Shown: piece after piece, positions 1 through 64,000 of the stretch
How positions within the stretch are numbered: position 1 is the first letter of the stretch
Layout: every line of letters starts with the position of its first letter
Source: Anaerolineae bacterium
GTDB taxonomy: Bacteria > Chloroflexota > Anaerolineae > Promineifilales > Promineifilaceae
Reading direction: 5' to 3'
Assembly (NCBI GenBank): GCA_030425205.1
Contig: JAUIAP010000016.1
Span: 55,956-119,955, forward strand
Length of the DNA: 64,000 nucleotides
Notes under the pieces: generated by a model
The model's database searches: none
The model's input: the letters and a program-made list of their open reading frames with translations, nothing else
What the model was told of the DNA's origin: nothing
Translations under genes and position numbers: made by a program

Positions 1-31
1 CGTTCCACTCCTCTGGCTCGCGTTCGCGCTC

Positions 32-2185
32 ATGGTCGCCAGCGCATTACAGAAGAGTTCGACCGTTGACGAACAGAGTCATCTCTTTCGCGGCGCGGCC
101 TATCTCAAGGCAAACGCGACCCATTTCTTATTGGGGCATCCAATTGGCAACAGCGCACTCGCCGCGCTGCCCCTATTGACCGAGCCAGACCTGCAACTGC
201 CCACCGAAATTCCCGCATGGGAGACGGGAAATTGGTCGGTCGCTGGCGACTATTTTCTTTGGCGTATTGGCAACAATGCACAGCGGATCATCTTTTTGGG
301 TCGTTTGCCGATGATCTTTTGCACCTTGATTTTGGGCTGTTTTATCTTTCGCTGGGGGCGGCAACTTGGCAATATAGCGACGGGGTTGATTGCGGCCACA
401 TTGATCTTGTTCGACCCAAACATCCTCGCACATGGGCGGCTCATTTCGTCCGATGTGACGCTCACGCTGTTTTGGGCCGTGGCGGTCTATGGGTTTTGGC
501 GTTGGTCGCAGCATGGAAAGCGATCGGCCATTGTGTTGGCTGGGTTTGGCTTGGGCATGGCCAGTTTGATGAAATACAACGCGGCGTTTTTGTTGCCCAC
601 ACTAGCGATATTGGCGGGTTATGAGTGGTGGAAACGACGCACGCGCGCGCCCTTGCATGCGTTGACTGGCACAGTCGCGGTCGGCGGGTTGGTGATCTGG
701 GGGGTCAATCGCTTTGCGCTGACGCCCTTGCCCGGCGGCGCGTTTTGGGATGATCTGTTTTGGCAGATGCAGTATTTCGGCCGAAATACCGGCGGCTATC
801 TACTCGGAAACTACAATCCCGATGGCTCGCTGCTATACTTTCCGATCGCCTTCCTGATCAAAACCCCGATCCCGACCCTGCTCCTAATCGGCACGGCCAT
901 CTTATTCACCGTCAACCCATCATCCCGCGTCGCTCGTCCCCCATCCGTCGTTTATCTCCTCATCCCCGCCATGATCTTCTGCCTGACCGCCTTCACGGCT
1001 GGTTTCAACATCGGCATTCGGCACCTCTTGCCGCTCTATCCCTACCTGTATTTAGCACTTGCGCTAGCAATTTCACGTCTAAGATCGACGCAGTGGCGGA
1101 TTGCGACGACTAGCATGGTCGCGGGAACAGTATTGGTTGCTGTTTGGATCTTTCCCAACTACCTCGCCTACTTCAATCAATTGATTGGTGGACCAGAAAA
1201 TGGCTGGCGATACTTGGCCGATAGCAACGTCGATTGGGGGCAAGAGCTGCCCGCGTTGGCGCAATGGCAGCGCACACATGACGAGAAAACGCTCTATCTC
1301 AGCTACTTTGGCACAGCACACGCCGACGCATACGGCATTGAATTTGAGCCGATTCCCGCACCGATCATCACGCCCGACCCGCCGCCCACAGAACGGCAAG
1401 CGCACGACCCGCGACACCCACGACCGGGCTACTACGCCATCAGCATCAACAACTTGATCGGCTTTCCCATGCAAGATGGAGAGCGTGATATGTACGCCGC
1501 ATTTCGTGAGATGGAGCCAATCGCAAAAGTGGGCAACGCTATCTTTGTCTATGAGGTTGCGGCAACGGGTGCGCCCGTCTCTGTGGCGTTTGCTGGGACA
1601 CGGCCCGCGTTGTTGCCTGAGGCTGTCTACGCGCAATGGGGAACGAATGATGTGCGCGTGCGCTGGTTTGAAAATCCCGACGAGATGTTAGTCGTTCCGG
1701 CAGGGAATGCCGCCTACATTGTCTCCAGTCAGCCTGTTGGTGAAATCCTGCGTGAGTCTGTCGATTTGCGGGTGGAATTATCGGCCGAAAATTCCCACAT
1801 CTACGCAGTGACAGCCACACCATTCAATCAACAAACTACGCCAAAAGGGGAGACCGTTACATTCTTAGCCAGTCTACAAAACGACGCGCTTGGACACGAT
1901 CCTCTCACCGCATGGCGCGTTGAAGAGAGACTAGACGGGATGATCAAACATTTCGTACACGCGACCGACCCACAAACTGGCGAGATTCTTGCACAAGCGG
2001 ATGATGTGATGATCGATGCGTTTTCGACGCTTGAAGCGGGCGATCTCTATCTGCGACTGAGCAAGCTCAGTTTAGATGCCGATACATTCGCCGTGACAAC
2101 GGGGCTTTACGATGCGGCAACGGGCATCCGCCTTGCCGACCCTATTTTGCTCTACACAACCGAAACAATGCCGACAGAAGAGTAA
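32..2185 (+). CDS. GT-C superfamily glycosyltransferase (PMT/ArnT-like, GT39/GT83-type polyprenyl-phosphate-sugar dependent) with ~300-aa C-terminal soluble extension; may be 5'-truncated by window edge
   Basis: 717-aa ORF. N-terminal half is polytopic membrane protein with the loop pattern typical of ArnT/PMT family (..GHPIGNSALAALPLL.., multiple TM helices, RxxDxxLxxFW-like stretch); C-terminal 300 aa hydrophilic. Followed by hairpin terminator. Confidence 0.55.
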   Translation: MVASALQKSSTVDEQSHLFRGAAYLKANATHFLLGHPIGNSALAALPLLTEPDLQLPTEIPAWETGNWSVAGDYFLWRIGNNAQRIIFLGRLPMIFCTLILGCFIFRWGRQLGNIATGLIAATLILFDPNILAHGRLISSDVTLTLFWAVAVYGFWRWSQHGKRSAIVLAGFGLGMASLMKYNAAFLLPTLAILAGYEWWKRRTRAPLHALTGTVAVGGLVIWGVNRFALTPLPGGAFWDDLFWQMQYFGRNTGGYLLGNYNPDGSLLYFPIAFLIKTPIPTLLLIGTAILFTVNPSSRVARPPSVVYLLIPAMIFCLTAFTAGFNIGIRHLLPLYPYLYLALALAISRLRSTQWRIATTSMVAGTVLVAVWIFPNYLAYFNQLIGGPENGWRYLADSNVDWGQELPALAQWQRTHDEKTLYLSYFGTAHADAYGIEFEPIPAPIITPDPPPTERQAHDPRHPRPGYYAISINNLIGFPMQDGERDMYAAFREMEPIAKVGNAIFVYEVAATGAPVSVAFAGTRPALLPEAVYAQWGTNDVRVRWFENPDEMLVVPAGNAAYIVSSQPVGEILRESVDLRVELSAENSHIYAVTATPFNQQTTPKGETVTFLASLQNDALGHDPLTAWRVEERLDGMIKHFVHATDPQTGEILAQADDVMIDAFSTLEAGDLYLRLSKLSLDADTFAVTTGLYDAATGIRLADPILLYTTETMPTEE

Positions 2186-2287
2186 TAGTTTGCAAACAGT
2201 GGGCAATCGGCGGATGAGTTTCCCCTATACAATGTCGCCAACTTGCCGCGATCTGACTAAAATGTGAAGCGAAATTTCTACAAATAG

Positions 2288-2312
2288 AACTCCCGCAGGG
2301 GAGTTTATTTTT
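2288..2312 (+). terminator. Rho-independent terminator (GAACTCCC-GCAG-GGGAGTT + TATTTTT) downstream of GT-C gene
   Basis: Perfect 7-bp stem, 4-nt loop, immediately followed by T-run, placed between stop at 2185 and RBS (GAGGAAAGG) of next gene at 2327. Confidence 0.6.
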
Positions 2313-2326
2313 GCGAGGAAAGGTAA

Positions 2327-4075
2327 ATGCAACGAAGAACATTTCTGATCTTTGTGGGCATTCTGGTGTCCACACTCTCAGCTATCACGCTATTTCTCCA
2401 AACGCCTGTGTCGCAGGCCGAAAACGCCGTCTTTGCACTGGGCGCAAATGAGCGTATTAGCGTTGGGACAGACGGGATAGAAGCAAATAACGAATCGTAT
2501 CATCCATACGCATCGGCCGATGGTCGCTATATCGGCTTCATCTCGTTTGCCGACAACTTTGTGCCCGAAGCGGATGGCGTGACCAAGTGTTTGGAAGATT
2601 TTGTCTGCACTGACGTCTTTTTACGCGACCGCGTAGCCAACACGACGATTCGTCTGAGCAACAGCTTGGCGGGCAATCAAGCCAACAGCACCAGTTTCCC
2701 ACCCATTTTGACCGAAGATGGCAGCAAGGTGCTGTTTAACTCTGTCGCCGATAACATGGTGCCGGGCGACACGAACGATGACGGCGACTTCTACGGGAGC
2801 GATGGCTTTCTCTGGGAACCGGGCAAAAATCTTGTGCGCGTCACCCACAAGGCGAGCGGCGCACAGATCAAGGGTGACAGCTCTGCCTACATCACGGGCG
2901 ATGGCAATACGATGTATTTTCTCTCAAACGGCCAAGACATCGTGCCGAACGTGCTCGTCGATGCGAACGAGGTGTATAAACGCGATATAACGACGGGCGC
3001 CGTGACCCATGTGCCAATGTCATACAATGGCGAGCCAGTAGATGGCGCACATCTCGGCATTCAAACAGACCGCACGGGTCGCTACATCGTTTTCACGACT
3101 GAGGCAACAAATATCTTGCCAAACGACATCAATGGCAAAGAAGATGTCTACATCCACGACATTCAAACGGGGATTACCAAACTGGTTAGCCACACGCCAA
3201 CCGGCTTTGTCGGGAATAACCATAGCTCTGCTCCCGCTATCACGCTGGATGGCACGTTTGTTGCCTTCCGTTCCTCCGCGAGCGATCTCGTGCCAAACGA
3301 TACGAACGGTGTGGGGGACATCTTTCTCTACAACATTGCAACGGAAGAAGTGACGCGAGTTAGCGTTTCGGCCGATGGCGAACAAGGGAACGGCGAAAGC
3401 AAAGATGCGACGACTTGTGCGGGTGCAAAATTTGTCGCGTTCACATCAGAAGCGACCAATCTCACGCCCAACGCCCCCAACGGCATCCGTCAGGTCTACA
3501 TCAAACATCTCGCGTCAGGGGTCGTCGATGTCGTCTCACAAACGGAAACAGGCGTTTTGGGCAATGGAACATCGTACAAATCCTATTTCATGCCATATTG
3601 CGATGGGATTATGTTTGCGACCGACAGTAGCAATCTGATCAACAACGACGGGAATGGGGTGCGCGATCTCTACTTGCGCCCGATTATAATTTTGCCTGAT
3701 CTCTCGACATCGCAGCAGATGGGACGCGGATCGGCCGATGCGGGTGATCTTTTAACTTATACTATCCACATCGCCAATACGGGCGGTCAATCCGTCGGTT
3801 TTAACTACAGCGCGACGTTGCCTGTCAGCGTGACACACGTCAGCACAAGCGGCGCGGTCTACAATGGCACAACCAGCAGCGTCAGCGCAGCTGGCACGCT
3901 TGCGGCCGGTGGAACCCAGCAGATCACTATCGTCGTCCAGATCGACGCGGCCATCGTTGACCCGACAATCATCACGTTCAACGGACAGCTCAGCGGCGGT
4001 AGCCAACTGTTCAACTACAGCACCTCAACAATGGTGAATGGATTAGAGCTATTCTTACCCGTTATGCGACGATGA
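2327..4075 (+). CDS. secreted protein with TolB-like/WD40-like beta-propeller repeats and C-terminal DUF11-type repeat domain
   Basis: N-terminal signal peptide (MQRRTFLIFVGILVSTLSAITLFLQTPVSQA); repeated ...GxxxSxxPxISADGRYIAFxSxAxNLVPxDTN... blocks typical of TolB-like propeller blades (6-7 copies); C-terminal segment DLLTYTIHIANTGGQSVGFNYSATLP resembles DUF11 conserved repeat. Confidence 0.55.
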   Translation: MQRRTFLIFVGILVSTLSAITLFLQTPVSQAENAVFALGANERISVGTDGIEANNESYHPYASADGRYIGFISFADNFVPEADGVTKCLEDFVCTDVFLRDRVANTTIRLSNSLAGNQANSTSFPPILTEDGSKVLFNSVADNMVPGDTNDDGDFYGSDGFLWEPGKNLVRVTHKASGAQIKGDSSAYITGDGNTMYFLSNGQDIVPNVLVDANEVYKRDITTGAVTHVPMSYNGEPVDGAHLGIQTDRTGRYIVFTTEATNILPNDINGKEDVYIHDIQTGITKLVSHTPTGFVGNNHSSAPAITLDGTFVAFRSSASDLVPNDTNGVGDIFLYNIATEEVTRVSVSADGEQGNGESKDATTCAGAKFVAFTSEATNLTPNAPNGIRQVYIKHLASGVVDVVSQTETGVLGNGTSYKSYFMPYCDGIMFATDSSNLINNDGNGVRDLYLRPIIILPDLSTSQQMGRGSADAGDLLTYTIHIANTGGQSVGFNYSATLPVSVTHVSTSGAVYNGTTSSVSAAGTLAAGGTQQITIVVQIDAAIVDPTIITFNGQLSGGSQLFNYSTSTMVNGLELFLPVMRR

Positions 4076-4184
4076 CTCGACAACCCTCACTCCCCCTCAG
4101 CCAATGGCGCGAGGGGGAACGCTCATGCGCTATCATCCCAGAACGCAACAGTTCACTCTCAGAAAAAATTGTTGGCATGTAACG

Positions 4185-4290
4185 TGGAGACGTGGTGCGT
4201 GGTGCGTGGTGCGCGATGAGCACAGATCACGCATTACGCACCACGCACCACACCCTACAAACCACACAAATTCTCAAAGATTCACCCTTG
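4185..4290. repeat. intergenic hairpin repeat, copy 1 of (GTGGTGCGT)n family
   Basis: acgtggtgcgtggtgcgtggtgcgcgatg ... loop ... attacgcaccacgcaccacac, followed by conserved tail ..aaattctcaaagattcaccc; same architecture recurs at 24245, 26135, 52678, 54472. Confidence 0.7.
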
Positions 4291-4315
4291 TACACAGCGC
4301 ATCGGGGGTGCAGGT

Positions 4316-5584
4316 TTGCTAAACCGGATTGTCGCCCAACGTGATAGCCTTGCCTTCCTCATCGCCACGACATTGGCCTATGGATTGGACTATCTGTTTA
4401 ACGTCGTCAGCGGTCGCTGGCTGGGTAATGAACAGTTCGGCACGCTCGTCGCGTTGGCGGGGGTCGGACAGATTCTCGTCGTCGGCTCGCGCGTCATCCA
4501 GACTGTAACGACCCGCTACATCTCCCGTTTTCGCGCCGATACGCACGAGGAGAAGGTGCGCCCATTTATCACGGCGGCCCTGCGCGTGGGCATCTGGGGC
4601 GGGTTGGGGATCACCGTTTTATTGTGTCTGTTAGCCTTTCCATTGGCACGATTTTTGCGAATCGAGGATATGTGGGCTGTTTTTGCGCTGTTGGGCGGGG
4701 TGGGGCTGATGGTGGTTCGGCCGATTATCGGCGGAACGCTGCAAGGTCAGCAACGCTTTCTCCCGCTCGGCATCATTCAAATTATTCAGGCATCCATCCG
4801 TCTCCTAGCTGGCGCACTCTTAATTCTCGCGGGTTGGGGCGCATTTGGCGCGATGATCGCCCTGCCGATTGCCAGTCTGATTGCGCTCGTTTATGGCGCG
4901 TGGCTCCTGCGCGATCTGCTCGGCGGCACCAGCACTGTTTCCAATACCACCCCACTGCGCGAACTCGCCCACTACTCTGGCTACACGGCGGCGGGGCTGA
5001 TCGGATTCGCGCTGCTCATCAACATGGACGCCATTCTCGTCAAACGTTTCTTCGACGCGGACACGGCAGGCGTTTACGGTGCGGCCGTCACGTTGGGCAA
5101 AGTGGTGCAATTTTTTCCCGTTGCCATCATCATGGTCTTGTTTCCAAAAGCTGCCCATCGGCAGGCGACTAAACGCAACCCTGCCGCCGTTCTACCCCCT
5201 GCATTCGCCCTCATTACGGCAGTCTGTCTCGGTGTCTCGATTCTTTACTTCGCCTTTCCCGATCTACTGGTCGGCACAATCTTTGGCGACAAATTTGAGA
5301 TCAGCGGGCGGACACTTGGCACGCTTGGCCTTGCCATGTGGTTGCTTTCGCTCACAAACGTCTGGCTCAACTACTTTCTGTCGCTCAATCGCGTGCGTAT
5401 CGTCTATCTCATCTGGACGGGTGTCATCACGCAATACATCGCCTTCAACATCTGGCACGATCAGCTTTGGCATCTACCGACCGTCATGGCAATCAATGCG
5501 TTGTGGCTGACCGTTGCTGGTGCAATTCTATTTGTGCGATCAAGCAGGGAAGTCACTTCATTGCAAGAAACCCATGCACCCTAA
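4316..5584 (+). CDS. polysaccharide biosynthesis protein / oligosaccharide flippase (Wzx-like, MOP superfamily); TTG start
   Basis: 422 aa, ~12 predicted TM helices, N-terminal conserved stretch (..YGLDYLFNVVSGRWLGNEQFGTLVALAGVGQILVV..) characteristic of Wzx/PST family. ORF begins with TTG at 4316 preceded by GGGGG. Confidence 0.6.
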   Translation: MLNRIVAQRDSLAFLIATTLAYGLDYLFNVVSGRWLGNEQFGTLVALAGVGQILVVGSRVIQTVTTRYISRFRADTHEEKVRPFITAALRVGIWGGLGITVLLCLLAFPLARFLRIEDMWAVFALLGGVGLMVVRPIIGGTLQGQQRFLPLGIIQIIQASIRLLAGALLILAGWGAFGAMIALPIASLIALVYGAWLLRDLLGGTSTVSNTTPLRELAHYSGYTAAGLIGFALLINMDAILVKRFFDADTAGVYGAAVTLGKVVQFFPVAIIMVLFPKAAHRQATKRNPAAVLPPAFALITAVCLGVSILYFAFPDLLVGTIFGDKFEISGRTLGTLGLAMWLLSLTNVWLNYFLSLNRVRIVYLIWTGVITQYIAFNIWHDQLWHLPTVMAINALWLTVAGAILFVRSSREVTSLQETHAP

Positions 5585-6239
5585 ATTACTCTACTTCCGC
5601 CACAAACTGTTTCGCTATCGGCAAGTTGAACAAGACATTGCCCAACGACAGACATCGCTTTTGGACATTGGTTGCGGGGATGGCGAAAATATGCTGCGCT
5701 TTCAACAGGCGTCGCTTGAAAAAGTGGGGATTGAAGTGTCGTTTAGTCGGTTACAGACTGCCCAACGGCAGGGACTGGTCGTGCAGCAAGCGAGCGGAAC
5801 GGCGTTGCCATTTGCCGATGACAGCTTCGATATGCTCTACATCGCGCATGTGTTGCACCATGTTGCTGAATTCGACACGGTGCTGCGCGAAATTGAGCGC
5901 GTGGTTGTTGAGAATGGCGTGGTCTTCGTGGTGGAAACAGTGACCGATCACCCGCTGCTGCGTCTGGCGCGTTGGTTGCATCCCGTCTGGCAAGGGGATG
6001 AGGTCGAGGCAAATTGGCGTTACAGTCAGCTTTATGAGATGCTGACCGCACATAACTTTCGCGTCGAGCGCACAGAACGCTACAATGTACTCTTCTTTCT
6101 GTGGGAGATGTTACCGCTGGCATTTTGGCCGTTTGAAATTTTCACACCGCTGTTTGTTTATCTCGACCTATTCTTCGCTCGTTTCGCTCAGCGGTATTCA
6201 GCTCACTGCTATTTTGTTTTACGACGCACAAACACATGA
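5574..6239 (+). CDS. class I SAM-dependent methyltransferase (Methyltransf_11-like)
   Basis: Motif I LDIGCGDGENML, motif post-I, acidic motif (FADDSFDMLYIAHVLHHV). ORF track starts at 5514 but that overlaps flippase by 70 nt; internal ATG at 5574 (MHPKLLYF..) chosen. Stop TGA overlaps next start (ATGA at 6236-6239). Confidence 0.7.
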   Translation: MHPKLLYFRHKLFRYRQVEQDIAQRQTSLLDIGCGDGENMLRFQQASLEKVGIEVSFSRLQTAQRQGLVVQQASGTALPFADDSFDMLYIAHVLHHVAEFDTVLREIERVVVENGVVFVVETVTDHPLLRLARWLHPVWQGDEVEANWRYSQLYEMLTAHNFRVERTERYNVLFFLWEMLPLAFWPFEIFTPLFVYLDLFFARFAQRYSAHCYFVLRRTNT

Positions 6240-7915
6240 CCAAAATTGTACTCATTGCGCTGGATGGCGCGACATTGGATTTACTAAAACCGTGGATGGA
6301 CGCGGGTGAACTACCATTGCTGGCGCAAATCTTCGCAGAAGGTGCAGGCGGCACGCTCAACAGCACCATCCCATGGGCAACGCCAACCGCATTTGCATCG
6401 CTGGCAACCGGCACAAATCCGGGCAAACACGGCGTCTACGACTTTGGGACGCTGATTGGCGATGACTATACGGCGTTTGTGCCAACCAGTGGCGGAGATG
6501 TGCACGGTCGAACGTTGTGGGAACGGCTGTCCGACGCGGGGATCAGCTCGGCCGTCATCAACATGCCCATGACCTATCCCGCCCCAGCCATCGAAGGCAG
6601 TGTCATCGCGGGAATTCCCTACCCCAGCGGCAGCCCACAACTCTGTCATCCCCCTCATTTGCTAGATCGCCTTCAGCAAGAAGGCTGGGATTTGGCGCGC
6701 AATGCGTCTGATGATTTGGGCGGTAGTTATGCGGCGTATCTTGACGGACTGCTCGACCTTGTGCGCGTGCGGGGTGAGGCCACGGCGTGGTTGATCGCGC
6801 AAGATAATCCTGACTTTGTCGCCGTCCATTTTTTGGAAACAGATCAGGCACAACATCGCTTCTGGCAATTCATGGCGGGCGAGCCACGCTATGAACATGG
6901 CGGCGAATATACCGATGCGATTTTGCGCGTTTTCCAGCAAACGGAGTCGGCGATGCAGCAGATTATCAACGCAGCGGGGGAAGACGCGCTGATCTGTGTC
7001 ATGTCGGATCATGGATTTGGCGCCACCCGTCATCAAGTTTGGCTCAACAATTGGCTGTTGCAGAATGACTTTCTCGCGCTCAAGTCAAACATGGGCGTGC
7101 GTGTCAAACAACTGCTCTATCGGGCGGGATTGTCGCCAGCGGCGATTCGGGAGATGGCTCCCGAGCGACTCAAATTGGCGATCTTGCAGTTTTTTGAACA
7201 ACAAAAGGGGCGTGCGCTGGCGAGTCAGACGGAAGGGGGGGATGCGCCCGTCAAGCGCAAAGGGGTGATGGACTGGCTGACAGAACGCTTGGCAATCGAT
7301 TTTTATGATGTCGATTGGGCGCGGACAGTCGCATTTTCGACGGGGACAACGGCGGTGGGATATGTCTATTTGAACGTCGCTGGGCGCGATCCGCAGGGGG
7401 TGGTGAGCAGTCAGCAATATGCTGTGAAGAGGCAGCAGATTGCCGAAAAGTTGCGCGATTGGGAAGCGGTTGGGGAAGTGCTTTTGCGGGAAGAGGTGTG
7501 GAAGGGTTCGCAGTTGGAGCTTGCGCCCGATTTGGTGATTCGATGGGCAGCGGACACGACGGATGCACGTTATTTCCAGACGCGCTTTAGTAGTCATCAT
7601 CTGATGAAAGCGGTGCCAAATGATTATGCAAGCCATCGGCCGAATGGTCTGTTCGCCTTTTATGGCAACGGGGTCAAAACGGGAATGCTCAACGCTGAAC
7701 TGGTCGATTTGACGGCGACGCTGTTGTGGCTGTTCAAACAGCCTGTGCCGAGCGTGCTGGATGGACGGGTGTTGACCGACTGTTTTGTGGCCGAGCGCGC
7801 AGTTTTGGTTGTGGAAGAGGCGGAAGATTCGGCCGAAAAAAGCACAGGCGGATTTTCGGCCGATGATGACGCCTCTCTCAAAGAGGCGTTGCGGCGACTA
7901 GGCTATTTAGAGTAG
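6236..7915 (+). CDS. alkaline-phosphatase superfamily protein, type I phosphodiesterase / nucleotide pyrophosphatase (NPP) family
   Basis: N-terminal ..IVLIALDGATLDLL.. and ..IPWATPTAFASLATGTNPGKHGVYDF.. match the metal-binding/nucleophile region (TxPT..TG) of PF01663-type enzymes; C-terminal ..MSDHGFG.. His/Asp metal site. ATGA overlap with upstream methyltransferase indicates translational coupling. Confidence 0.65.
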   Translation: MTKIVLIALDGATLDLLKPWMDAGELPLLAQIFAEGAGGTLNSTIPWATPTAFASLATGTNPGKHGVYDFGTLIGDDYTAFVPTSGGDVHGRTLWERLSDAGISSAVINMPMTYPAPAIEGSVIAGIPYPSGSPQLCHPPHLLDRLQQEGWDLARNASDDLGGSYAAYLDGLLDLVRVRGEATAWLIAQDNPDFVAVHFLETDQAQHRFWQFMAGEPRYEHGGEYTDAILRVFQQTESAMQQIINAAGEDALICVMSDHGFGATRHQVWLNNWLLQNDFLALKSNMGVRVKQLLYRAGLSPAAIREMAPERLKLAILQFFEQQKGRALASQTEGGDAPVKRKGVMDWLTERLAIDFYDVDWARTVAFSTGTTAVGYVYLNVAGRDPQGVVSSQQYAVKRQQIAEKLRDWEAVGEVLLREEVWKGSQLELAPDLVIRWAADTTDARYFQTRFSSHHLMKAVPNDYASHRPNGLFAFYGNGVKTGMLNAELVDLTATLLWLFKQPVPSVLDGRVLTDCFVAERAVLVVEEAEDSAEKSTGGFSADDDASLKEALRRLGYLE

Positions 7916-7918
7916 ATA

Positions 7919-49194: not shown

Positions 49195-49199
49195 GCCCT

Positions 49200-52677: not shown

Positions 52678-52775
52678 GTCTTTAGATTTTCGCCACTAAG
52701 GTGCGTGGTGCGTGTCCAGAATACGTACCACGCACCACGCACCACGAATGATAATGTGGCTAAAACTTCATTGAT
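52678..52775. repeat. intergenic hairpin repeat, copy 4 (inverted orientation), GTCTTTAGATTTTCGCC flank
   Basis: GTCTTTAGATTTTCGCCACTAAGG-TGCGTGGTGCGTG-tccagaata-CGTACCACGCACCACGCACCACG-aatgataatgtggctaaaactt; near-identical (reverse-complement) to copy 5. Confidence 0.7.
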
Positions 52776-54471: not shown

Positions 54472-54592
54472 TAGTTTTCGCCACTTGATAAGTCGTGGTG
54501 CGTGGTGCGTACTCTGGACACGCACTACGCACCACGTACCACTCACCTAAGTGGCGCAAACCTAAAGACCCTGCCCATATTCTTAAAATTCG
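54472..54592. repeat. intergenic hairpin repeat, copy 5 with GGCGCAAACCTAAAGAC flank
   Basis: agttttCGCCACTTgataa-GTCGTGGTGCGTGGTGCGTAC-tctggacac-GCACTACGCACCACGTACCAC-tcaccTAAGTGGCGcaAACCTAAAGACcctgcccatattcttaaaattcgcg; nested outer stem CGCCACTT/AAGTGGCG. Confidence 0.7.
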
Positions 54593-55851: not shown

Positions 55852-56026
55852 TTTAAACTCTCCTTTATCGTGCTGAATTTTCGGCCGATTATAACACGAT
55901 CTTCTACATCCTCCCCCACCTTAACATAGCCAAAACAAACCATTGAAAAATCGATAACATGCCCAATCGTGGCACGATTGGGCGGGTTAAACATGCTGCG
56001 AGAACGCATCAAAATGTGCGTTTTCC

Positions 56027-56611: not shown

Positions 56612-57634
56612 TTGTCTTCTAATTCAAGATACAGACCATATTGGCTCATGCTGCTTGTCGCCCTGCATTGGGGCTGGCTAATTGGATGCAATTCAGCACC
56701 GCTGCCAACCCCAACAGCAACAGTGGTCAAGCCGCCACCCGCGACGATGAAGCCCACTGTGACCGCTGTCATTTCGGCACCATTACCCAGCGAGCATCCC
56801 AGTTTGTCATCGCTCATTCCCACACCACAACCAAGCGCGACGCCAACCAGCACGCCTGATCCATTCACAAAAATCGTCACTGCGCTGCCGCCCACGCCCA
56901 CACAGTCCCCCTGTGCAACAACTGGCACAACGACAGCAGCCAGCTATACCAGCACCATTGAAGGCCCCACCCGCACCTATCGCATCTATCTACCCCCATG
57001 CTATGCAGCAGAAACGCGCACATACCCAACGCTCTACATGCTACATGGCAATCTCTATGGCGAGGAAGAGTGGGACAACATTGGCATCGACGATGAGGCG
57101 GATGCGCTAACATTGGCTGGGGAGGTTGCGCCAATGATTATCGTCATGCCAGAGGGTCGTCGCGTTAGTGACAACACGAGTGGTGGTGATTTTTCATATG
57201 AGGCGGTGCTGGTCAACGAGCTTATTCCGCATGTCGATGCGCTCTATCGTACCAATGGCGAGCGGGCGATTGGCGGACTGTCACGTGGCGGATACTGGGC
57301 AGCGGAGGTTGCCTTTCGCCATCCAGATCTATTTAGCGCGGTTGGATTACACGCGCCGGTCTTTTTGGACACAGGCGATGATCGGGCGATCAATCCATTG
57401 TGGACGGTCGAATCGGCCGAAATCAACACCCTCTGCATCGCCTTCGACTTTGGTTCAGAAGATTTCTATATCAGCACCGCACAACCGATCCGTGACGCGC
57501 TGCTCACCCGCCAAATTCCCCATAACTGGACGATCTACCCCGACGGCAGCCACGCCTACCCATACTGGTCAGAACATCGTGCCGACTATGTCCGTTGGTA
57601 TGCGCAACGATGGCAGCGGCAAAGGTGCGACTAA
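56612..57634 (+). CDS. secreted/membrane-anchored esterase-family alpha/beta hydrolase (putative esterase, PF00756-like)
   Basis: N-terminal hydrophobic anchor, Pro/Thr-rich linker, then YRIYLPPCY..YPTLYMLHG (esterase family signature), GLSRGGYWAAEVAFRHPDLF (GxSxG nucleophile elbow). Confidence 0.7.
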   Translation: MSSNSRYRPYWLMLLVALHWGWLIGCNSAPLPTPTATVVKPPPATMKPTVTAVISAPLPSEHPSLSSLIPTPQPSATPTSTPDPFTKIVTALPPTPTQSPCATTGTTTAASYTSTIEGPTRTYRIYLPPCYAAETRTYPTLYMLHGNLYGEEEWDNIGIDDEADALTLAGEVAPMIIVMPEGRRVSDNTSGGDFSYEAVLVNELIPHVDALYRTNGERAIGGLSRGGYWAAEVAFRHPDLFSAVGLHAPVFLDTGDDRAINPLWTVESAEINTLCIAFDFGSEDFYISTAQPIRDALLTRQIPHNWTIYPDGSHAYPYWSEHRADYVRWYAQRWQRQRCD

Positions 57635-57833: not shown

Positions 57834-60800
57834 TCAGGCGACTTTCGAGCGCAACCGACGAACCAAGAGCCCAATCGTGGATACGCAGAACAATAACATG
57901 AGCAGACTCAGGCTGTTGGGCGCGATGACGGTTACCGTGCGCAACATGACGGCGGTGGGAAGCGTTCCCGTGCGCTCGAATGCGCCCATGTCATACAAGC
58001 CAGCGCGGGCGGCATCTTGGGGGCGTATCGCGTTGTCGAGATCGTTCGGCAAGCCTGTCGCGCACTGGTCAACGGCTGGCGAGGCGGCGGCAAGGCGATA
58101 GTTACCCCGTCCCGTCACCTCAAACTGTGGATCGACACTGATGTTGTCCGTCCCAGCAAGCGGGCTGCCCTGCGTCAAGTTGCAGTTGGCGTTAAGCACT
58201 GCGCTCCCGTGCAAGCCAATGTTGATCGAGTTGCCCCAGACGATGTTGTTGCTTAAATTGACGGTCGTATTGTTATTGGCGTAAAGTGGCTGACCATTGG
58301 GGTTGTCGGCAATCGTCGCATGTTTACCGGTGAAGGTGCCATTATCAACCTCAACGACCGAACGGTTATGTGTGCCCGTGAGCAGTGCATTGTACAGTTC
58401 AATGTCGGCCGCATTGGTTTGATAGAGTGCGCTGCCAAAGCTGGCGTTGCCCGCCGTATTGTCGCGCAAGGCGACACCACGCAACTGGGCGGCACTGTCG
58501 TTAAAGTAGAACGCCCCGCCGTGTGAATCGGCCGAATTTCCCACCAACTCATTGCAATACTGATTCGCATTGAGCGCAAGCACATTGCACGCCAACCCGC
58601 CACCGCCGTAGAGCGGTTCGAGCGTCAAATCGCTGCTCGCAAACAATGCGGCAAATCCACCCTCCCCATCGGCATGATTCGACTCACCGATCACGTTGAC
58701 CAAACTCACGGTCGACGAATTAGCGGCAAAGATTGCGCCGCCGTCCCCATCCGTCTCGTTTTCTGTGATGCGCGTCCCCGTCAGTGCAACGGTCGCATTG
58801 ACCGTAGCGTAGACACCTCCGCCCGCTGAATCGGCCGAATTGTCGAGCAGCACACCCCCGTTGGCGCGCAGCGAACTATTCGGCCCAGAGACAAATGCAC
58901 CGCCACCAAACGCCGCGCTGTTGGCTGGGCAAACGATGAAATCACACTGGTTGCCCAGCGTTGCACTGTCGTTTAGTTCGGCAACCGCGCCGTTGGTCAG
59001 ATAGATGCCGCCGCCATTGTCGTTGGCGTGACTATTGGCGATGCGGCTATTGCCAAACAGCGCGATCCGACCGCCATCCACATACGCCCCGCCACCGCTC
59101 GTCGCGCTCTGGTTATCGCCAAAGAGAATTGCCGAGCCGACATAGCTATCGGTGAGCGTTACGGTGCCAGCGGGGGCAATGGCGATGCCGGCACCCCCAT
59201 CACCTACGTCTGTCCCTGTGGTGCTGCTGCCATAAATGGTGCTACCGTTGCGCAATTCGGCCGATCCCGCAAAGACGCGCAAGCCACCACCGTTATCACT
59301 CGCAACCCCGTCGATTAGGGCCACATTGTCGAGAATCAACGTGCTGTTTCCACTCACGTAGGCGATCCCGCCCCAACGCGCGCGCGCATTTTGCAGGCGC
59401 ATATTTTGCAACGTGACCGTCGCCCCATTGCTGACTTCAACCACGCCGCCCTGCGTCGCAAACGCATTGTCGCGATCAATTTCTGCATAGTCGATGGCGC
59501 GATTAGCCGCAGCCGTGCAGTCGCCGTTGCCACTGGTTAGCGTCAAATCTTTTTCAATGTCGCCCATGTGCTCGTTGTAATAGCCTGTCTGAATGTAGAT
59601 GGTGTCACCAGCAGATGCAGCCGTAATCGCGTCCACGATGGTGCCATAGGCACACGTTGCACCGTTGATGCCGACAAAGTGATGGAGTTCATCTGCACCC
59701 GCGTCATAGTCGCCCGCGTTGACCTCTTCGCAGTTATAGCAAACAAAGCTGAAATGTTGATCGGTCGTATCGCCGTTGTAGTAGTAGGCATCGCCGCCCA
59801 GCGTGGGGGCATAGATGCGGATGGCATATTCGCCTGCCACGGGGTTTTCAATCCAAACGTTTTCAACGGGATTATGAATGTCGTTGAAATTATCCCCAAC
59901 CGCGCTCCAGCCATCGTTGCCAAACTTATTGCCAACCCAGATATTGCCGTTCGGGTCGGTCACGCGCAATTTGAGATCGTTTACGAGCGGGTTGAGCGCG
60001 CCCGGTGCGCCCGGTGCGTCGGACCATGCCAGCGACAGGCGCAGCGGTTCGCCCGTGTCGCTGACCGTCACAACGAGGTCATAGAACTGCCCAATATCAG
60101 TCAGCAGAACCGGGTTTTCATAAAATAGGATGGGCACGGGCGGGTTGAGTAGACGGTCGATGTTGACACGCCCCCAGCCTTGATGCGGATTCGGCCGATT
60201 GCCCATCACGTTGTTCCAGCCATCCAATCCACCGCCGAGATCATCGGTCGTTGCGATCAACGCCGCCTTGACCGTTGCGGGTTCAGGATTGGCATTGTTG
60301 CCATTCCGCACATACCACTGTTGCGTAAACAATGCGGCCGCGCCAGCAACGTGGGGCGAAGCCATGCTCGTGCCGTTGCAAAAGGCGTGCTGCGTTGTGC
60401 CAGCAGGGGATGTGGCACACGATTCGTTGATCGCGCCATCGCGGTTCTCAGTGCTGACGATGCGGTTGCCCGGCGCAACGACATCAGGTTGAATCAGACT
60501 CGACACGGCCAAGTTGACGGCTGGGCCACGACTGCTAAAAAAGGTGATGTCGTTGGGACTATCGTTTGTGCCACCAAACGTGTCGGAGCGTTCACTGTCG
60601 TGGCTGCCGACGTTGACGATATTTTTTGCCTCTTTCGGTTCTGTGATGGAGTCGAGACAGGGGCCGGGACCACAATCATCGCCCGCATTGCCGGCCGCAA
60701 AGATGGTCAGGAACGGATTACGTCCGCCGCCCGTCAATGCATCGAGGGTCGCGTCATCTTGATTGGCCGCGAGCTGTGTATAACCCGCTCCCGCTGGCCC

Positions 60801-63800
60801 TGCGTTCCATGAATTGTTGCTCAAATCGGCATTTGCGGCGGCACTGGCAACCCGTTCCGCCATCGTCACGCGCATCTGCACCCACGCGGACGAGATGAGT
60901 AGACCCTGATCTGTGCCGTTGGCGTTTGAGCTGAATGTGAAACGGATGCGGAAGTTATTGACGTAGTAAGTCGTTGGAATTGACCAGCTGCGCAGTTGAT
61001 ACTGTCCGCCACTGTTTCCACCACAAACAGTGCGCGCGGTTGCCCAACTCGTGCCGCCATTGTTGCTGACCTGCACAGAAAAACAGTCGTTCGCATCGGC
61101 AAGGCTGAAAAACTCTCCCCAAAATAGCTGTGGCGTGACGGGGCTGGCCGCCGTGTAACTGCTCATGTCGATCAGTGGGGACGTGATACGACTCGACTCA
61201 TTGTTGTTATAGTTGCCAAAGCCGCCCGTTCCCCACGCGCCGTCACCCCCGCCTGACACATTCCATGACCACGAGCTGTTTGTGCCAGCCGCAACGTAGC
61301 CACCATTGTTGTTGGTTAAATCATCCAAATAAGGATAGGTCGCATCAGAAGAGATTGCGTCCATCGCGTGCAGGCCAGCACCGGGAGCCATGCCTTGACC
61401 GTAGAGGAAGCCATCAGAATCGGTCGAGCCGCTCCCCCCATTCCCCGCGACAATGCCCGCCACGTGCGTGCCATGTCCAGAGCCGTTCACTTGTGGATTG
61501 CTGCCGCCGTCCGTACCGGGTTCATTCGGCTCTGTGTAGGCGCCATACTCCGTGCCTGAGACGACATTGAGTTCAGGATGATCCCAGTCGACACCCGTGT
61601 CAACAATAGCGACCGTTACACCCGTGCCGTCGTAACCTGTGTCGTCGAGCCAATCTTGATACCCTGTGACGACGTTGCCGCTCCCGTCAAAGTTGCTGGC
61701 GACGATTTGATTGGTGCGTTCGTCCGCCAACGTGTCGGGATAGAGTCGGTCGAGGTTGATCAGTTGTGGTATGGCTTGCAGTTGGGCAAGTTGCGCGGGT
61801 GTGGTCCACAGCTCCCAGACGACCATGCGCCCGCGCTCCCCCATCACGTGCCGCTCAGTGGTGCTGATGCGTCCCGTCATTGCGGGCAGGTTGCCGTCAT
61901 CCCAAAGCAGGGCTGTGACCATCAGTGGCGTTGCGGCCGAACTGCGCCCAGCTTCACTTGTCAGGCGTTGGGTTGTGCGGAAATCGGCCGAAAATGGCGC
62001 AATCACACGCACGTGCGCCGATTGTTCGCGTCGCGCCAACCGCTCCGCATCTGCCCATACGAGATAGGTGTGATTTTGATAGTATTGAATCGGCGTGCCA
62101 ATCTTTTGGACCTCTTCAAATAGCTGTTCCGTCAGCGGAGAGCGCATTTGAACGAGATAGAGTCCCTCACCCGCCTTTGTCAATGCCTCATGACTACGCG
62201 AACTGTCCTGCAAGTCTAGCGTCATGTCATCGAGTCCGAACAACCCATAACCCAACTCTTGCGTAAACGGAATCCCGCTCATTTGCAATTGGGCAAACTG
62301 GGTGCTGGTCAGCTCAAGCCAGAGAAAGCTGCCATAGTCGAGCGCGCGCACGCTGTTGTCAAGCAGCGGTTGGACATCCTCAATCGCCGACCACGCAACC
62401 CGTGCAGCATGGGTGGCGCGATCCAACATAGCGCGGCTAGCTGGGTCAGATTGATCGAGGTTGCGGCGTGTGTCGAGGGGGCGCAATTGATAGTCGATGT
62501 CGCGGGCGAAGCCACTGTTGCAGTGGTCGCGGGCGGGAGATTGACGGGTGATGTGGTAGTTGCCGTTGCCCACAAAAAGTGGGTCTGCGACGATGTTACC
62601 ACCGCCCACATACGGCTCTGACAAGACCGAGCAGCTAATCATCACCTCGCCATCATCTGTGACAAGTGCGCCAGCATTGCCCCAGACAATGCTGGACGTC
62701 ATCTCTAGCGCAGCTCGCGCTGCAACAGAAAATGCGGCAGTGCTGTTACCCGTGTTGCCTGCAATGGTGACATTGTTCAGCGTCGCCTTTGCGCCATACC
62801 CATCGCTGCCCGAGTTAAGGATACTTATGGTGGAGAAACTGCCGTCATTGTCAGCGATAATGACACTGTCGAGATTGATGTAGGTATTGGCGCGTGCAGC
62901 AAAAATTGCCGCGCCCGACCCAGCCGACTGGTTATTCTCAACATAGACGCTTTCTAAATCGAGATCCGCCCCCAACCATGCGTAGACAGCCCCGCCTGCA
63001 CCAGCCGTTGTCACATTGTCGCTAATTTGAGCACATTTGACGGTACTGCATGGGAAAAGTGTCGTGTGGTCAAAATCGACAAGCGTCCCATCACCGACAG
63101 CGTAAACGCCTGCGCCGCCAATCGCCGCCCGATTGCGCAGGAGAGAGGCGTTATCACCATAAACGTCGGCGCCAGAACTCAAATAGAGTCCCCCACCGTA
63201 CTCCTCGGCCACATTATCATAGACATTCACACCGCTGCCTTGTAGTTCAATTCGGCTGTCGTTTGTGGCATAGATACCTGCGCCAGTGCGGGCGGTGTTG
63301 TAGGCGATGCTGTTGTATTCACCCGCCCCTGAGACGAGGGTTAAGTCGCAGTTGTCGAGATAGAAGCCGCCACCGCTACCAACATTGGAGTTATCGTTGT
63401 CGGCCACATTTGGGCGCGGATCGATAATGCCAGCAAACAAAACGGCTAAGCCGACCCCACTACCCGTATCGAGATCAATCGTGCCATCGACACAAAAAAT
63501 GCCGCCGCCGTGTGTATCGGCCGTATTACTTTGCACAAAACTATTGTCTGAGAGGGTCAACGTGCCGCCGTCAAGATGGATGCCACCGCCATAGCTCGAA
63601 TCGTTGTCAGTAACAATCACGCTTTCGAGCGTGACGGATGCATCGGCGTTAATTTCAATCCCACCACCATAGTCGGCATCATCTTGTCCTCCTGTAATGA
63701 CGAGTTTGTTCAGCAAAACGGTCGTGCCGCTTTCATAAATTTCTAGGACAGAATCGGCCGAATTTCCCGCCAGCGTCGTTGTGGAGCCACCAAACGAAAC

Positions 63801-63980
63801 GAGACAGGTCGAATTATAGCCACCATAAATATTGAGTGATTTATTCAGATTGTAGTTACCGTTAAACGTCTTGCCTTCGAGCAAAATGGTGTCCCCGTCA
63901 TTGGCGACGGCCAGTGCCTCAGTGAGTGTTTTATAGGTACAAGATGTCCCGACGGTTAGCGTCGCGGCTGTTTGACGCAT
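57834..63980 (-). CDS. giant (2048 aa) subtilisin-like protease (S8) with extensive parallel beta-helix (PbH1) repeats and C-terminal hydrophobic anchor + basic tail
   Basis: Perfect SD (GGAGGTGATCC) before ATG at 63980; S8 motifs VAIVDTGVDWDHPEL (Asp), HGTHVAGIVAGNGG (His), GTSMASPHVAGAAAL (Ser); many GGG(I/V)Y..N..A. beta-helix turns; C-terminus ..VTVIAPNSLSLLMLLFCVSTIGLLVRRLRSKVA. Confidence 0.75.
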   Translation of the reverse strand: MRQTAATLTVGTSCTYKTLTEALAVANDGDTILLEGKTFNGNYNLNKSLNIYGGYNSTCLVSFGGSTTTLAGNSADSVLEIYESGTTVLLNKLVITGGQDDADYGGGIEINADASVTLESVIVTDNDSSYGGGIHLDGGTLTLSDNSFVQSNTADTHGGGIFCVDGTIDLDTGSGVGLAVLFAGIIDPRPNVADNDNSNVGSGGGFYLDNCDLTLVSGAGEYNSIAYNTARTGAGIYATNDSRIELQGSGVNVYDNVAEEYGGGLYLSSGADVYGDNASLLRNRAAIGGAGVYAVGDGTLVDFDHTTLFPCSTVKCAQISDNVTTAGAGGAVYAWLGADLDLESVYVENNQSAGSGAAIFAARANTYINLDSVIIADNDGSFSTISILNSGSDGYGAKATLNNVTIAGNTGNSTAAFSVAARAALEMTSSIVWGNAGALVTDDGEVMISCSVLSEPYVGGGNIVADPLFVGNGNYHITRQSPARDHCNSGFARDIDYQLRPLDTRRNLDQSDPASRAMLDRATHAARVAWSAIEDVQPLLDNSVRALDYGSFLWLELTSTQFAQLQMSGIPFTQELGYGLFGLDDMTLDLQDSSRSHEALTKAGEGLYLVQMRSPLTEQLFEEVQKIGTPIQYYQNHTYLVWADAERLARREQSAHVRVIAPFSADFRTTQRLTSEAGRSSAATPLMVTALLWDDGNLPAMTGRISTTERHVMGERGRMVVWELWTTPAQLAQLQAIPQLINLDRLYPDTLADERTNQIVASNFDGSGNVVTGYQDWLDDTGYDGTGVTVAIVDTGVDWDHPELNVVSGTEYGAYTEPNEPGTDGGSNPQVNGSGHGTHVAGIVAGNGGSGSTDSDGFLYGQGMAPGAGLHAMDAISSDATYPYLDDLTNNNGGYVAAGTNSSWSWNVSGGGDGAWGTGGFGNYNNNESSRITSPLIDMSSYTAASPVTPQLFWGEFFSLADANDCFSVQVSNNGGTSWATARTVCGGNSGGQYQLRSWSIPTTYYVNNFRIRFTFSSNANGTDQGLLISSAWVQMRVTMAERVASAAANADLSNNSWNAGPAGAGYTQLAANQDDATLDALTGGGRNPFLTIFAAGNAGDDCGPGPCLDSITEPKEAKNIVNVGSHDSERSDTFGGTNDSPNDITFFSSRGPAVNLAVSSLIQPDVVAPGNRIVSTENRDGAINESCATSPAGTTQHAFCNGTSMASPHVAGAAALFTQQWYVRNGNNANPEPATVKAALIATTDDLGGGLDGWNNVMGNRPNPHQGWGRVNIDRLLNPPVPILFYENPVLLTDIGQFYDLVVTVSDTGEPLRLSLAWSDAPGAPGALNPLVNDLKLRVTDPNGNIWVGNKFGNDGWSAVGDNFNDIHNPVENVWIENPVAGEYAIRIYAPTLGGDAYYYNGDTTDQHFSFVCYNCEEVNAGDYDAGADELHHFVGINGATCAYGTIVDAITAASAGDTIYIQTGYYNEHMGDIEKDLTLTSGNGDCTAAANRAIDYAEIDRDNAFATQGGVVEVSNGATVTLQNMRLQNARARWGGIAYVSGNSTLILDNVALIDGVASDNGGGLRVFAGSAELRNGSTIYGSSTTGTDVGDGGAGIAIAPAGTVTLTDSYVGSAILFGDNQSATSGGGAYVDGGRIALFGNSRIANSHANDNGGGIYLTNGAVAELNDSATLGNQCDFIVCPANSAAFGGGAFVSGPNSSLRANGGVLLDNSADSAGGGVYATVNATVALTGTRITENETDGDGGAIFAANSSTVSLVNVIGESNHADGEGGFAALFASSDLTLEPLYGGGGLACNVLALNANQYCNELVGNSADSHGGAFYFNDSAAQLRGVALRDNTAGNASFGSALYQTNAADIELYNALLTGTHNRSVVEVDNGTFTGKHATIADNPNGQPLYANNNTTVNLSNNIVWGNSINIGLHGSAVLNANCNLTQGSPLAGTDNISVDPQFEVTGRGNYRLAAASPAVDQCATGLPNDLDNAIRPQDAARAGLYDMGAFERTGTLPTAVMLRTVTVIAPNSLSLLMLLFCVSTIGLLVRRLRSKVA

Positions 63981-64000
63981 TGGATCACCTCCGGCGGGTT

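Follow-up and report, generated by a model that had tools for sequence, protein, structure and literature searches.

What is the octamer TCGGCCGA that recurs throughout a 64,000-base stretch of DNA from an Anaerolineae bacterium (Chloroflexota, Promineifilaceae; assembly GCA_030425205.1, contig JAUIAP010000016.1, positions 55,956 to 119,955; hereafter the window), and what keeps it there? An inspection of the sequence by eye, referred to below as the original prediction, had likened the octamer to HIP1, the highly iterated palindrome (HIP) of cyanobacteria. The analysis presented here reveals a lineage-wide highly iterated palindrome, WTCGGCCGAW (W, A or T), copies of which have arisen independently of one another in unrelated chromosomal genes, at about 1.2 per kb.

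Exact copies of TCGGCCGA number 78 in the window, the G+C content of which is 54%. The original prediction had put the count at about 75; all 62 of the coordinates that it listed fall within 16 nt of an exact site (10 coincide precisely), and 16 sites were missing from its list. Dinucleotide-preserving shuffles gave an expectation of 1.63 +/- 1.29 copies, with a maximum of 6, and Markov models of orders 1-3 gave 1.7-2.9 copies per strand (2.9 at order 3). The observed-to-expected ratio (O/E) is 48 against the shuffles and 27, rather than a value near 1, under the third-order Markov model; it reaches 66 in a pooled, masked third-order comparison. The next most frequent 8-mer palindrome of the window has five copies. 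On average there are 1.2 copies of TCGGCCGA per kb (1,219 per Mb), and 78 of the 117 CGGCCG hexamers of the window lie within the octamer.

When the 78 copies were aligned with 12 nt of flanking sequence on each side, the information content dropped to about zero beyond +/-3 nt. The flanks are unrelated, and a dispersed repeat or miniature inverted-repeat transposable element (MITE) was rejected, in agreement with the earlier opinion that the copies do not belong to one dispersed element. Immediately outside the octamer, A or T occupies position -1 in 76 copies, position +8 in 74 and both positions in 72, with a slight A/T richness two to three bases further out. The two flanking bases are mutually independent (A..A 20, A..T 13, T..A 22, T..T 17), so the true repeat unit is the 10-base, palindrome-like WTCGGCCGAW and not TTCGGCCGAA, the extension put forward originally, which accounts for only 22 of the 78 copies. 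Because TCGGCCGA is its own reverse complement, strand skew is impossible; no terminator pairs formed by its copies were found in the window. The sites are spaced at a mean of 818 bp with a coefficient of variation of 0.85, compared with 0.99 in simulations (P=0.08). Regular spacing was rejected on this basis, the distribution being Poisson-like at the kilobase scale; at other loci, spacing is slightly over-dispersed.

Annotation from open reading frames (ORFs) and Pfam yielded 36 genes, which occupy about 93% of the window and form an ordinary chromosomal mixture: lepA, purA, recJ, lpd, glgC, a Mur ligase gene, glycosyltransferase genes and one ISAzo13 transposase gene. Of the 78 sites, 76 (97%) are intragenic and are spread over 32 different genes, 37 in plus-strand and 39 in minus-strand genes. 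The two intergenic sites are situated in the spacer between an epimerase gene and lepA (14815-14822) and upstream of glgC, in a divergent region (55881-55888). The occurrence of sites in all frames, in genes of both strands and between genes had been noted previously and is borne out, but the shares are uneven. Frame 0 (TCG GCC GAW, encoding Ser-Ala-Asp/Glu) holds 45 sites, or 59% of those in coding sequence, while 16 are in frame 1 (xTC GGC CGA, Phe/Ile/Val-Gly-Arg) and 15 in frame 2 (xxT CGG CCG Axx, x-Arg-Pro-x).

The pressure responsible acts on DNA; not only are synonymous positions fixed, but amino-acid replacements are imposed as well. The tripeptide Ser-Ala-[Asp/Glu] occurs 52 times in the window proteins, a 4-fold excess over the 12.8 expected from amino-acid frequencies, and in 45 of these 52 cases it is spelled TCGGCCGA(A/T), compared with the 6.5% predicted by codon usage. 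The word likewise spells 16 of 23 occurrences of [FLIV]-Gly-Arg and 16 of 53 of x-Arg-Pro. At frame-0 sites both flanking bases are third codon positions, and these are A or T in 45 of 45 cases on each side, against a third-position background of 39.5% (p about 7e-19); neither GAG nor GAC ever follows the word directly, though their share of Glu and Asp codons is 43-44%. An origin driven by codons (which the original prediction had also denied) or by amino acids was therefore rejected: codon usage is overridden and protein sequence is changed. The latter effect is illustrated by recJ (minus strand), in which each of three sites is accompanied by one to three amino-acid replacements relative to the consensus of 120 homologues, all toward what the word requires. 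These sites lie at 24581-24588 (frame 2; NHRPIF in place of NP[TQ]PVF, H-R-P-I for P-T-P-V), 25198-25205 (frame 0; ISAET in place of LTAES, S-A-E for T-A-E) and 25512-25519 (frame 1; SIGRK in place of SLGP[KEV], I-G-R for L-G-P). In lepA, no site is present in the window copy and one in that of a related locus (L001); there are otherwise only half-sites, at constrained positions, so that this gene was uninformative for the comparison of orthologous sites.

The nearest genomes, located with LepA as a probe, are metagenome-assembled genomes (MAGs) of uncultured Ardenticatenaceae and Candidatus Promineifilaceae (Chloroflexota, Anaerolineae). The best LepA match, at 94% identity, belongs to MAG SRP334346_co1_90 (GCA_964389925.1), three loci of which contain 15 copies of TCGGCCGA in 21 kb (L001), 28 in 21.7 kb (L151) and 26 in 26 kb (L273). 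Seven copies were found in 9 kb of a Promineifilaceae MAG (L002) and seven in 6 kb of a JGI contig (L152), and the word is also present in Logan contigs of other runs (L081/L082, L274, L275). A lookup with the PurA of the window matched two 4.9-kb Logan contigs. In five pooled loci of the TCGGCCGA subclade (122 kb), 135 sites were counted where 2.0 were expected. Since the word recurs in independent assemblies (Logan contigs of two runs, an NCBI MAG and a JGI contig), it is not an assembly artefact, and its presence at the same density in several relatives makes it a property of the lineage rather than of a single assembly. No iterated palindrome was observed in loci of unrelated bacteria that were found through PurA (<=57% identity) and served as negative controls.

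Some features of these searches may be recorded here. Among the metagenome contigs collected by JGI, PurA of the window (22915-24243, plus strand) is matched by no relative at more than 57% identity when alignments are full-length, whereas for LepA and RecJ of the same organism the NCBI and JGI data include relatives at 92-94%. Around recJ, the order of genes differs wholly from that in the closest MAG, which indicates rapid rearrangement. An IMG/VR contig (L272, 1-1240), the sole HIP-dense viral match among those listed, carries eleven copies of TCGGCCGA at multiples of 33 nt inside one ORF; it was rejected as a viral HIP locus, since its copies form a tandem repeat in coding sequence and thereby imitate the density of a HIP, and it counsels caution in searches based on pattern.

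A comparison of orthologous sites between relatives, as envisaged in the original prediction, was carried out at about 79-82% nucleotide identity, with all aligned 8-mers as background. Window sites are kept in 7 of 11 cases in L273 (background 18%, p=0.001) and in 10 of 14 in L275 (background 22%, p=1e-4). All three recJ sites are kept in L151 and two of the three in L152, that at 24581-24588 having been lost in the latter. Reciprocal comparisons agree, and overall the sites persist 3-4 times better than background 8-mers. Where a site is not conserved, the CGGCCG core is still retained in about 40% of cases (10 of 24 listings), with a difference at an outer base only.

The longest HIP-free stretches measure 3.4 kb in the window, 4.2 kb in L273 and 3.5 kb in L151, and each of them holds mobile or defence genes. 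That of the window (49041-52481) includes the ISAzo13-family transposase gene (49212-50327, minus strand), that of L273 a Transposase_31 island (16239-17422), and that of L151 a gene for a Dam-like (D12) methyltransferase with an adjacent 277-amino-acid ORF (17605-19571). These three sets of genes, defined a priori as mobile or defence genes, contain no site at all, for which the joint chance is about 0.006 by a Poisson estimate; there are three cases, and each gap is unremarkable alone. The genes in the gaps fit recent acquisition.

To place the palindrome in a wider context, all 8-mer palindromes were counted in 80 LepA loci and mapped onto a LepA neighbour-joining tree. In one clade of that tree, CGGCCG, the EagI site, is enriched 4-11x on base composition, with L006 (1.5x) and L019 (2.0x) below this range. 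The octamer built on that hexamer differs from one part of the clade to another. TCGGCCGA is the word of the window, L001 and L002. A second, large subclade (L003-5, L008-11, L013-14) uses ACGGCCGT, of which 162 kb contain 250 copies where 3.3 were expected, and 28% of these copies are extended to AACGGCCGTT; in the trio L009/L010/L011, 74-90% of these sites are kept, compared with 26-34% of all 8-mers. L012 uses GCGGCCGC (46 copies in 19.4 kb against 1.0 expected), 35% of which are extended to CGCGGCCGCG. In L007, from a MAG of Candidatus Hadersleviella danica (1-21833), the hexamer itself is iterated without a fixed octamer: CGGCCG occurs 118 times in 21.8 kb, an O/E of about 10, and its outer bases are mixed (A..A 24, A..T 19, G..A 15, A..C 14, G..T 13), and similarly mixed flanks were seen in L015, L016 and L026. 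L019, from a Candidatus Promineifilaceae MAG with a G+C content of 68% (1-5671), has nine dispersed copies of TGCCGGCA in 5.7 kb, against 0.34 expected. The core of TGCCGGCA is GCCGGC (NaeI/NgoMIV), and to judge from this locus the core itself has been switched within the clade.

The distribution of near-matches is in keeping with this picture. In the pooled TCGGCCGA loci, one-base variants have O/E values of 4.6-9.3 at the outer positions and 0.3-1.5 at the inner ones, and the same trend was seen in ACGGCCGT genomes. The functional core is the hexamer CGGCCG, and the outer bases constitute a lineage-specific dialect, T..A here and A..T or G..C in sister subclades.

A very different situation was found in 13 sister Anaerolineae loci (L018, L020, L022, L025, L029, L031-L035, L038, L039 and L043). 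CGGCCG does not occur once in their 174.7 kb, where 75-83 copies were expected, while GGCC is only mildly low (615 against 894). Such a combination is the signature of a CGGCCG-specific restriction enzyme, and it suggests that an EagI-type restriction system has long resided in these lineages; proteins that recognise CGGCCG appear, from these counts, to be entrenched in the class Anaerolineae. The window itself lacks or nearly lacks several other 6-bp palindromes (observed/expected): CTGCAG 0/14, CTCGAG 0/8.8, CCCGGG 0/4.4, AGCGCT 1/22.7, CCGCGG 2/29.5, ACGCGT 2/21.6, GGATCC 1/11 and GGCGCC 9/51. It therefore displays heavy avoidance of restriction sites beside a single hyper-abundant one.

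Together, these data define a sequence-specific force that recognises CGGCCG plus lineage-specific outer bases, acts in the long term on resident DNA and preserves or regenerates its sites. We give an even chance to the explanation that the palindrome, as an analogue of the known HIPs, is sustained by methylation specific for CGGCCG together with biased repair or selection. Under such a mechanism, the clade would possess a CGGCCG-specific DNA cytosine methyltransferase of the solitary kind, the probable origin of which lies in the domestication of restriction-modification (R-M) systems of the EagI type; such systems are implied by the total absence of the hexamer from sister Anaerolineae. Some methylation-linked DNA transaction would then favour the cognate word whenever a one-base-off sequence sat in a mismatch or heteroduplex; this might consist in mismatch correction of a very-short-patch-like or methyl-directed kind, in recombination of incoming self DNA that depends on methylation, or in both. 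During long residence, biased conversion, possibly combined with selection for marked sites, would fill all tolerant positions of resident genes and keep the sites once formed, and newly arrived DNA would stay bare of the word. Between lineages, the outer bases would change as the extended contact preference of the enzyme or enzymes drifted.

A methyltransferase is favoured because symmetric recognition of 6-8 bp is typical of type II enzymes, because the sister lineages purge exactly CGGCCG, and because the HIP1 core is the site of an orphan 5-methylcytosine (m5C) methyltransferase (PMC4390886, PMC6105098). HIP1 raises transformation, with a dependence on methylation, according to a preprint (10.1101/2024.09.10.611283). 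In the Nanomotif supplement, CGGCCG is called as methylated at its fourth base, as N4-methylcytosine and as 5-methylcytosine, in environmental bins without taxonomy, so that such enzymes exist in nature; that supplement contains no extended HIP word and no Chloroflexota names. A weak hint comes from TGGCCG/CGGCCA (C-to-T at the CpG cytosine), the most over-represented transition product of the core in three locus groups (third-order Markov O/E 1.5-1.7), an excess compatible with a hypermutable CpG cytosine.

Several observations weigh against maintenance by methylation. Neither the window nor about 0.5 Mb of loci from the clade, a sample far too small to represent genomes, yielded a cytosine methyltransferase; the search employed regular expressions for C5 and N4/N6 motifs and phmmer with an M.HhaI sequence, and its positive control was matched in L092. 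The very-short-patch drive exerted by Dcm/Vsr in Escherichia coli enriches its site only about 1.3-2x, against 30-60x here. The depletion of inner one-base variants is mild and gives no sign of a strong conversion sink now at work. The specific G-m5C model of Elhai does not accommodate the outer bases T, A and G, the high orthologous conservation fits functional selection as well as drive, and the core of L019, GCCGGC, is unrelated, so that the link between the acting agent and CGGCCG does not extend to the whole clade. The D12 methyltransferase encoded in L151 was considered separately as the agent and rejected, as a Dam-like enzyme cannot act on CGGCCG. A fuller scenario is advanced tentatively, as possible rather than probable: the clade may have independently evolved a CGGCCG HIP system from an R-M methyltransferase that still restricts in sister lineages. 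The enzyme would mark self DNA for a pathway of repair, recombination or uptake, and changes in the specificity of that pathway would have produced the dialects TCGGCCGA, ACGGCCGT and GCGGCCGC, the switch to TGCCGGCA and possible barriers to genetic exchange.

The same density and dialects might instead denote a word for DNA uptake or self-recognition, bound by a competence or recombination protein and spread by biased uptake and recombination with no requirement for methylation. A frequency of about 1 per kb, an intragenic location and the distortion of peptides all resemble the uptake signal sequence (USS) of Haemophilus, and outer-base variants on a constant core resemble the dialects of the DNA uptake sequence (DUS) of Neisseriaceae; the absence of the word from the mobile DNA seen here and the high conservation between orthologues are also in favour. 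Known uptake sequences, however, are non-palindromic and often stand as inverted pairs in terminators, whereas a perfect palindrome that is 97% intragenic is at issue here. The avoidance of CGGCCG in sister lineages points to recognition of the R-M type, and would be a coincidence if uptake were the cause. Two preprints tie HIP1 to transformation efficiency and to the DNA-uptake machinery (10.1101/2024.09.10.611283, 10.64898/2026.06.24.733823), but that effect of HIP1 is methylation-dependent, so uptake may merge with the methylation explanation; as an explanation in its own right we regard it as unlikely.

The two-fold symmetry of a 10-bp word would also suit a homodimeric DNA-binding protein. 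Such a dimer might be nucleoid-associated or might organise the chromosome, and selection for chromosome structure could then keep its binding sites at about 5,000 per genome. Conservation of sites beyond background is in line with this idea, as is the argument of Xu et al. (2018) that HIP1 is under selection and has a part in the structure of the nucleoid (PMC5861425). Yet spacing at the kilobase scale is indistinguishable from random, and the purging of the identical hexamer in sister lineages is left unexplained, so the proposal seems to us quite improbable. Random spacing accords with a functionless by-product, in which context-dependent bias of mutation or repair, without methylation, generates sites that are merely tolerated; so do the location of sites at variable protein positions, their scarcity or absence in constrained genes such as lepA, and the apparent lack of sites in newly acquired DNA. 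Nevertheless, symmetric specificity over 10 bp with 30-60x enrichment needs a sequence-specific protein, the sites outlast background 3-4x at about 80% identity, and replacements at moderately conserved recJ positions imply a strong force. A by-product of this kind is given a small chance. There is next to no prospect that a mobile element, a dispersed or tandem repeat or an artefact of assembly is responsible. Nothing in the window supports such an origin, although the tandem repeat of L272 shows that cases of that kind exist elsewhere, and it is refuted by flanks almost devoid of information beyond +/-3 nt, by occurrence in 32 unrelated genes in all frames and by recurrence in independent assemblies and relatives.

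The intragenic sites not yet located are given here as exact matches, with the frame relative to the host gene indicated by the peptide encoded: S-A-D and S-A-E denote frame 0, F-G-R, I-G-R and V-G-R frame 1, and R-P followed by any residue frame 2. Genes on the minus strand are marked (-). The PMT_2 glycosyltransferase gene has sites at 777-784 (F-G-R) and 1781-1788 (S-A-E), and the DUF11/PD40 gene has three encoding S-A-D (2513-2520, 3368-3375 and 3731-3738). A polysaccharide flippase gene follows with 4717-4724 (R-P-I), then a phosphodiesterase gene with 7636-7643 (R-P-N), 7829-7836 (S-A-E) and 7856-7863 (S-A-D). Four sites lie in a GT2+GtrA gene, at 8110-8117 (R-P-K), 8258-8265 (S-A-D), 9186-9193 (I-G-R) and 9746-9753 (S-A-D), and two in a GT2 gene, at 10064-10071 (I-G-R) and 10808-10815 (F-G-R). 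The radical SAM/SPASM gene contains 12291-12298 (F-G-R), the epimerase-methyltransferase gene 14391-14398 (V-G-R) and 14522-14529 (S-A-E), and the LacI-family gene 17115-17122 (R-P-N) and 17394-17401 (R-P-I).

Further along, a DUF58 gene (-) bears 18340-18347 (S-A-D), 18683-18690 (R-P-I) and 18913-18920 (S-A-E), and an FMN dehydrogenase gene (-) 19581-19588 (I-G-R) and 20050-20057 (S-A-D). Single sites are present in a kinase-like gene (21448-21455, R-P-K) and a hypothetical gene (22476-22483, S-A-E), and purA has two encoding S-A-E (24052-24059 and 24136-24143). Beyond recJ, sites were assigned to hypothetical (-) coding sequence at 27453-27460 and 27549-27556 (both S-A-D) and 28001-28008 (F-G-R), to lpd at 28336-28343 (S-A-D), to a Band7 gene at 30333-30340 (R-P-I) and to a second Band7 gene at 31262-31269 (R-P-K). 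The PfkB kinase gene has two S-A-E sites (32849-32856 and 33629-33636), a cytochrome c peroxidase gene (-) has 34078-34085 (F-G-R) and 34595-34602 (S-A-E), the DUF1800 gene has 35284-35291 and 36352-36359 (both S-A-E) and 36704-36711 (I-G-R), and the DUF1501 gene has two encoding F-G-R (37687-37694 and 37924-37931).

Nine sites fall within the alpha-2-macroglobulin gene (-): 38441-38448 (F-G-R), 38976-38983 (S-A-D), 39381-39388 (S-A-E), 40380-40387 (S-A-E), 41335-41342 (R-P-N), 41739-41746 (S-A-E), 42546-42553 (S-A-D), 43059-43066 (S-A-E) and 43533-43540 (S-A-D). At the fifth of these, the half-sites TCGGCCGC and TCGGCCGT are found in relatives. The S8 peptidase+PA14 gene (-) contains 45148-45155, 47557-47564 and 48286-48293 (all S-A-D) and 47851-47858 (S-A-E), and a hypothetical gene (48526-49194, -) contains 48710-48717 (S-A-D), 48965-48972 (S-A-E) and 49033-49040 (F-G-R). 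On the far side of the HIP-free stretch, the DUF255 gene has 52482-52489 (R-P-N) and 52557-52564 (R-P-T), the Mur ligase gene (-) 53419-53426 (V-G-R), 53480-53487 (S-A-E) and 53573-53580 (S-A-E), glgC (-) 55014-55021 (R-P-I) and an esterase gene 57413-57420 (S-A-E). The large S8 peptidase gene (-) completes the series, with 58528-58535, 58831-58838, 61984-61991 and 63754-63761 (all S-A-D), 59257-59264 (S-A-E) and 60191-60198 (R-P-N).

With respect to the genes themselves, the alpha-2-macroglobulin ORF (38405-44551, -) and that of the giant S8 subtilase (57834-63980, -) are unrelated and comprise 2,048 residues each; the S8+PA14 protease (44889-48413) is a third secreted protein. The window also harbours a REP-like (repetitive extragenic palindromic) family of four intergenic hairpins, at 4190-4252, 26154-26210, 52700-52745 and 54492-54537, which is unrelated to the HIP. 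Their stems consist of tandem heptads, (GTGGTGC)n facing (GCACCAC)n, with no HIP site inside, and the RNA folds predicted for them lie between -31 and -54 kcal/mol (z-scores -5.5 to -8.2).

HIP1 was already known in the 1990s. Its function was still called unresolved in papers of 2018 and 2026 (PMC5861425; 10.64898/2026.06.24.733823), and the HIP papers found in the literature are all on cyanobacteria. In keeping with the original prediction, which was aware of no described HIP with this sequence, the searchable literature holds no description of TCGGCCGA, of CGGCCG over-representation or of any HIP in Chloroflexota, Ardenticatena and Promineifilum included. There appears, then, to be a second, independent instance of a HIP in another phylum, with a different restriction-site core. 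Its dialects, the core switch in one relative and the purging sister lineages constitute a natural comparative experiment: correlation of methyltransferase, Vsr-like or competence genes and of target-recognition domains with dialect could show the writing machinery. If the fuller scenario is true, comparison of dialect with enzyme could identify the machinery that 30 years of work on HIP1 have left unpinned. In practical terms, the word is a strong marker by which these Chloroflexota can be binned, stretches without it could be flagged as horizontally acquired, their proteomes are visibly distorted (the 4-fold enrichment of Ser-Ala-Asp/Glu), and the density of EagI and NotI sites in their genomes is extreme.

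It remains to compare the palindrome with known systems. A mechanistic precedent is provided by Dcm/Vsr in E. coli, where CCWGG is over-represented because mismatch correction is biased to the cognate site; unlike the case described here, that effect is below 2x (30-60x here) and creates neither an 8-10-bp word nor dialects. The DUS of Neisseria and the USS of Pasteurellaceae share with the present word a frequency of about 1 per kb, a position within genes, an influence on peptides and dialects on a conserved core. They are asymmetric 9-12-mers that occur in two orientations, are often paired in terminators and have a known competence receptor, whereas TCGGCCGA is a perfect palindrome with two of 78 copies intergenic, and so lacks the asymmetry that defines them. 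REPs and bacterial interspersed mosaic elements (BIMEs) are likewise short palindromic words with many copies per genome, but REPs are imperfect hairpins of 20-40 nt that are intergenic only, in contrast to a word of 8-10 bp that forms no hairpin and is 97% intragenic; the conserved extended sequence characteristic of REPs, BIMEs and MITEs is lacking, the flanks being unrelated. Nor does a self-complementary word possess the strand asymmetry of Chi and of the skewed octamers that impart chromosome architecture.

The closest parallel is HIP1 (GCGATCGC), as the original prediction had proposed. HIP1 is present at 300-2,700 per Mb in cyanobacteria (Elhai 2015, PMC4390886), a range that includes the density of the window, and both are GC-rich palindromic octamers found about once per kb, tens-fold over expectation, and dispersed in coding and non-coding DNA with no longer repeat around them (PMC4390886, PMC5861425, PMC3497702). 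The word is nonetheless not HIP1 itself, since GCGATCGC does not figure among the palindromes that are frequent in the window and CGATCG occurs 18 times there against 46 expected. In both systems the 6-bp core is a type II recognition site and deviants are mainly outer; those of HIP1 concentrate at positions 1 and 8, around the methylated core CGATCG (PMC4390886). Shared also are lineage-specific extensions to 10 bp and orthologous conservation above background, and the scarcity of HIP1 in recently acquired DNA may have a counterpart here in the three empty mobile and defence gene sets. A long-range periodicity of 10-90 kb along the chromosome has been described for HIP1 (Xu et al. 2018, PMC5861425).

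There are differences as well. The core here is CGGCCG (EagI) instead of CGATCG (PvuI), and the phylum is Chloroflexota; TCGGCCGA has no internal GATC, so no Dam-type component is possible, unlike in HIP1. Core methylation has been demonstrated for HIP1 and is a prediction for the present core. The outer pair switches among sister subclades (T..A, A..T, G..C), again unlike HIP1, and sister lineages purge the core. Exceptional cyanobacteria employ alternate HIPs (TCGATCGA, GGCGCC, GCSGC and RCCGGY), each of which co-occurs with its cognate methyltransferase (Elhai 2015, PMC4390886). As here, where L019 uses TGCCGGCA and L012 GCGGCCGC, one palindrome replaces another within a clade, but the published alternates never contain CGGCCG (0 occurrences, PMC4390886). 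The sequence features of the HIP class, namely abundance, dispersion, protection of the core, orthologous conservation and lineage-specific extensions, are thus present in this lineage, and what looks new is a HIP system outside the cyanobacteria, with a new core and evolving dialects.

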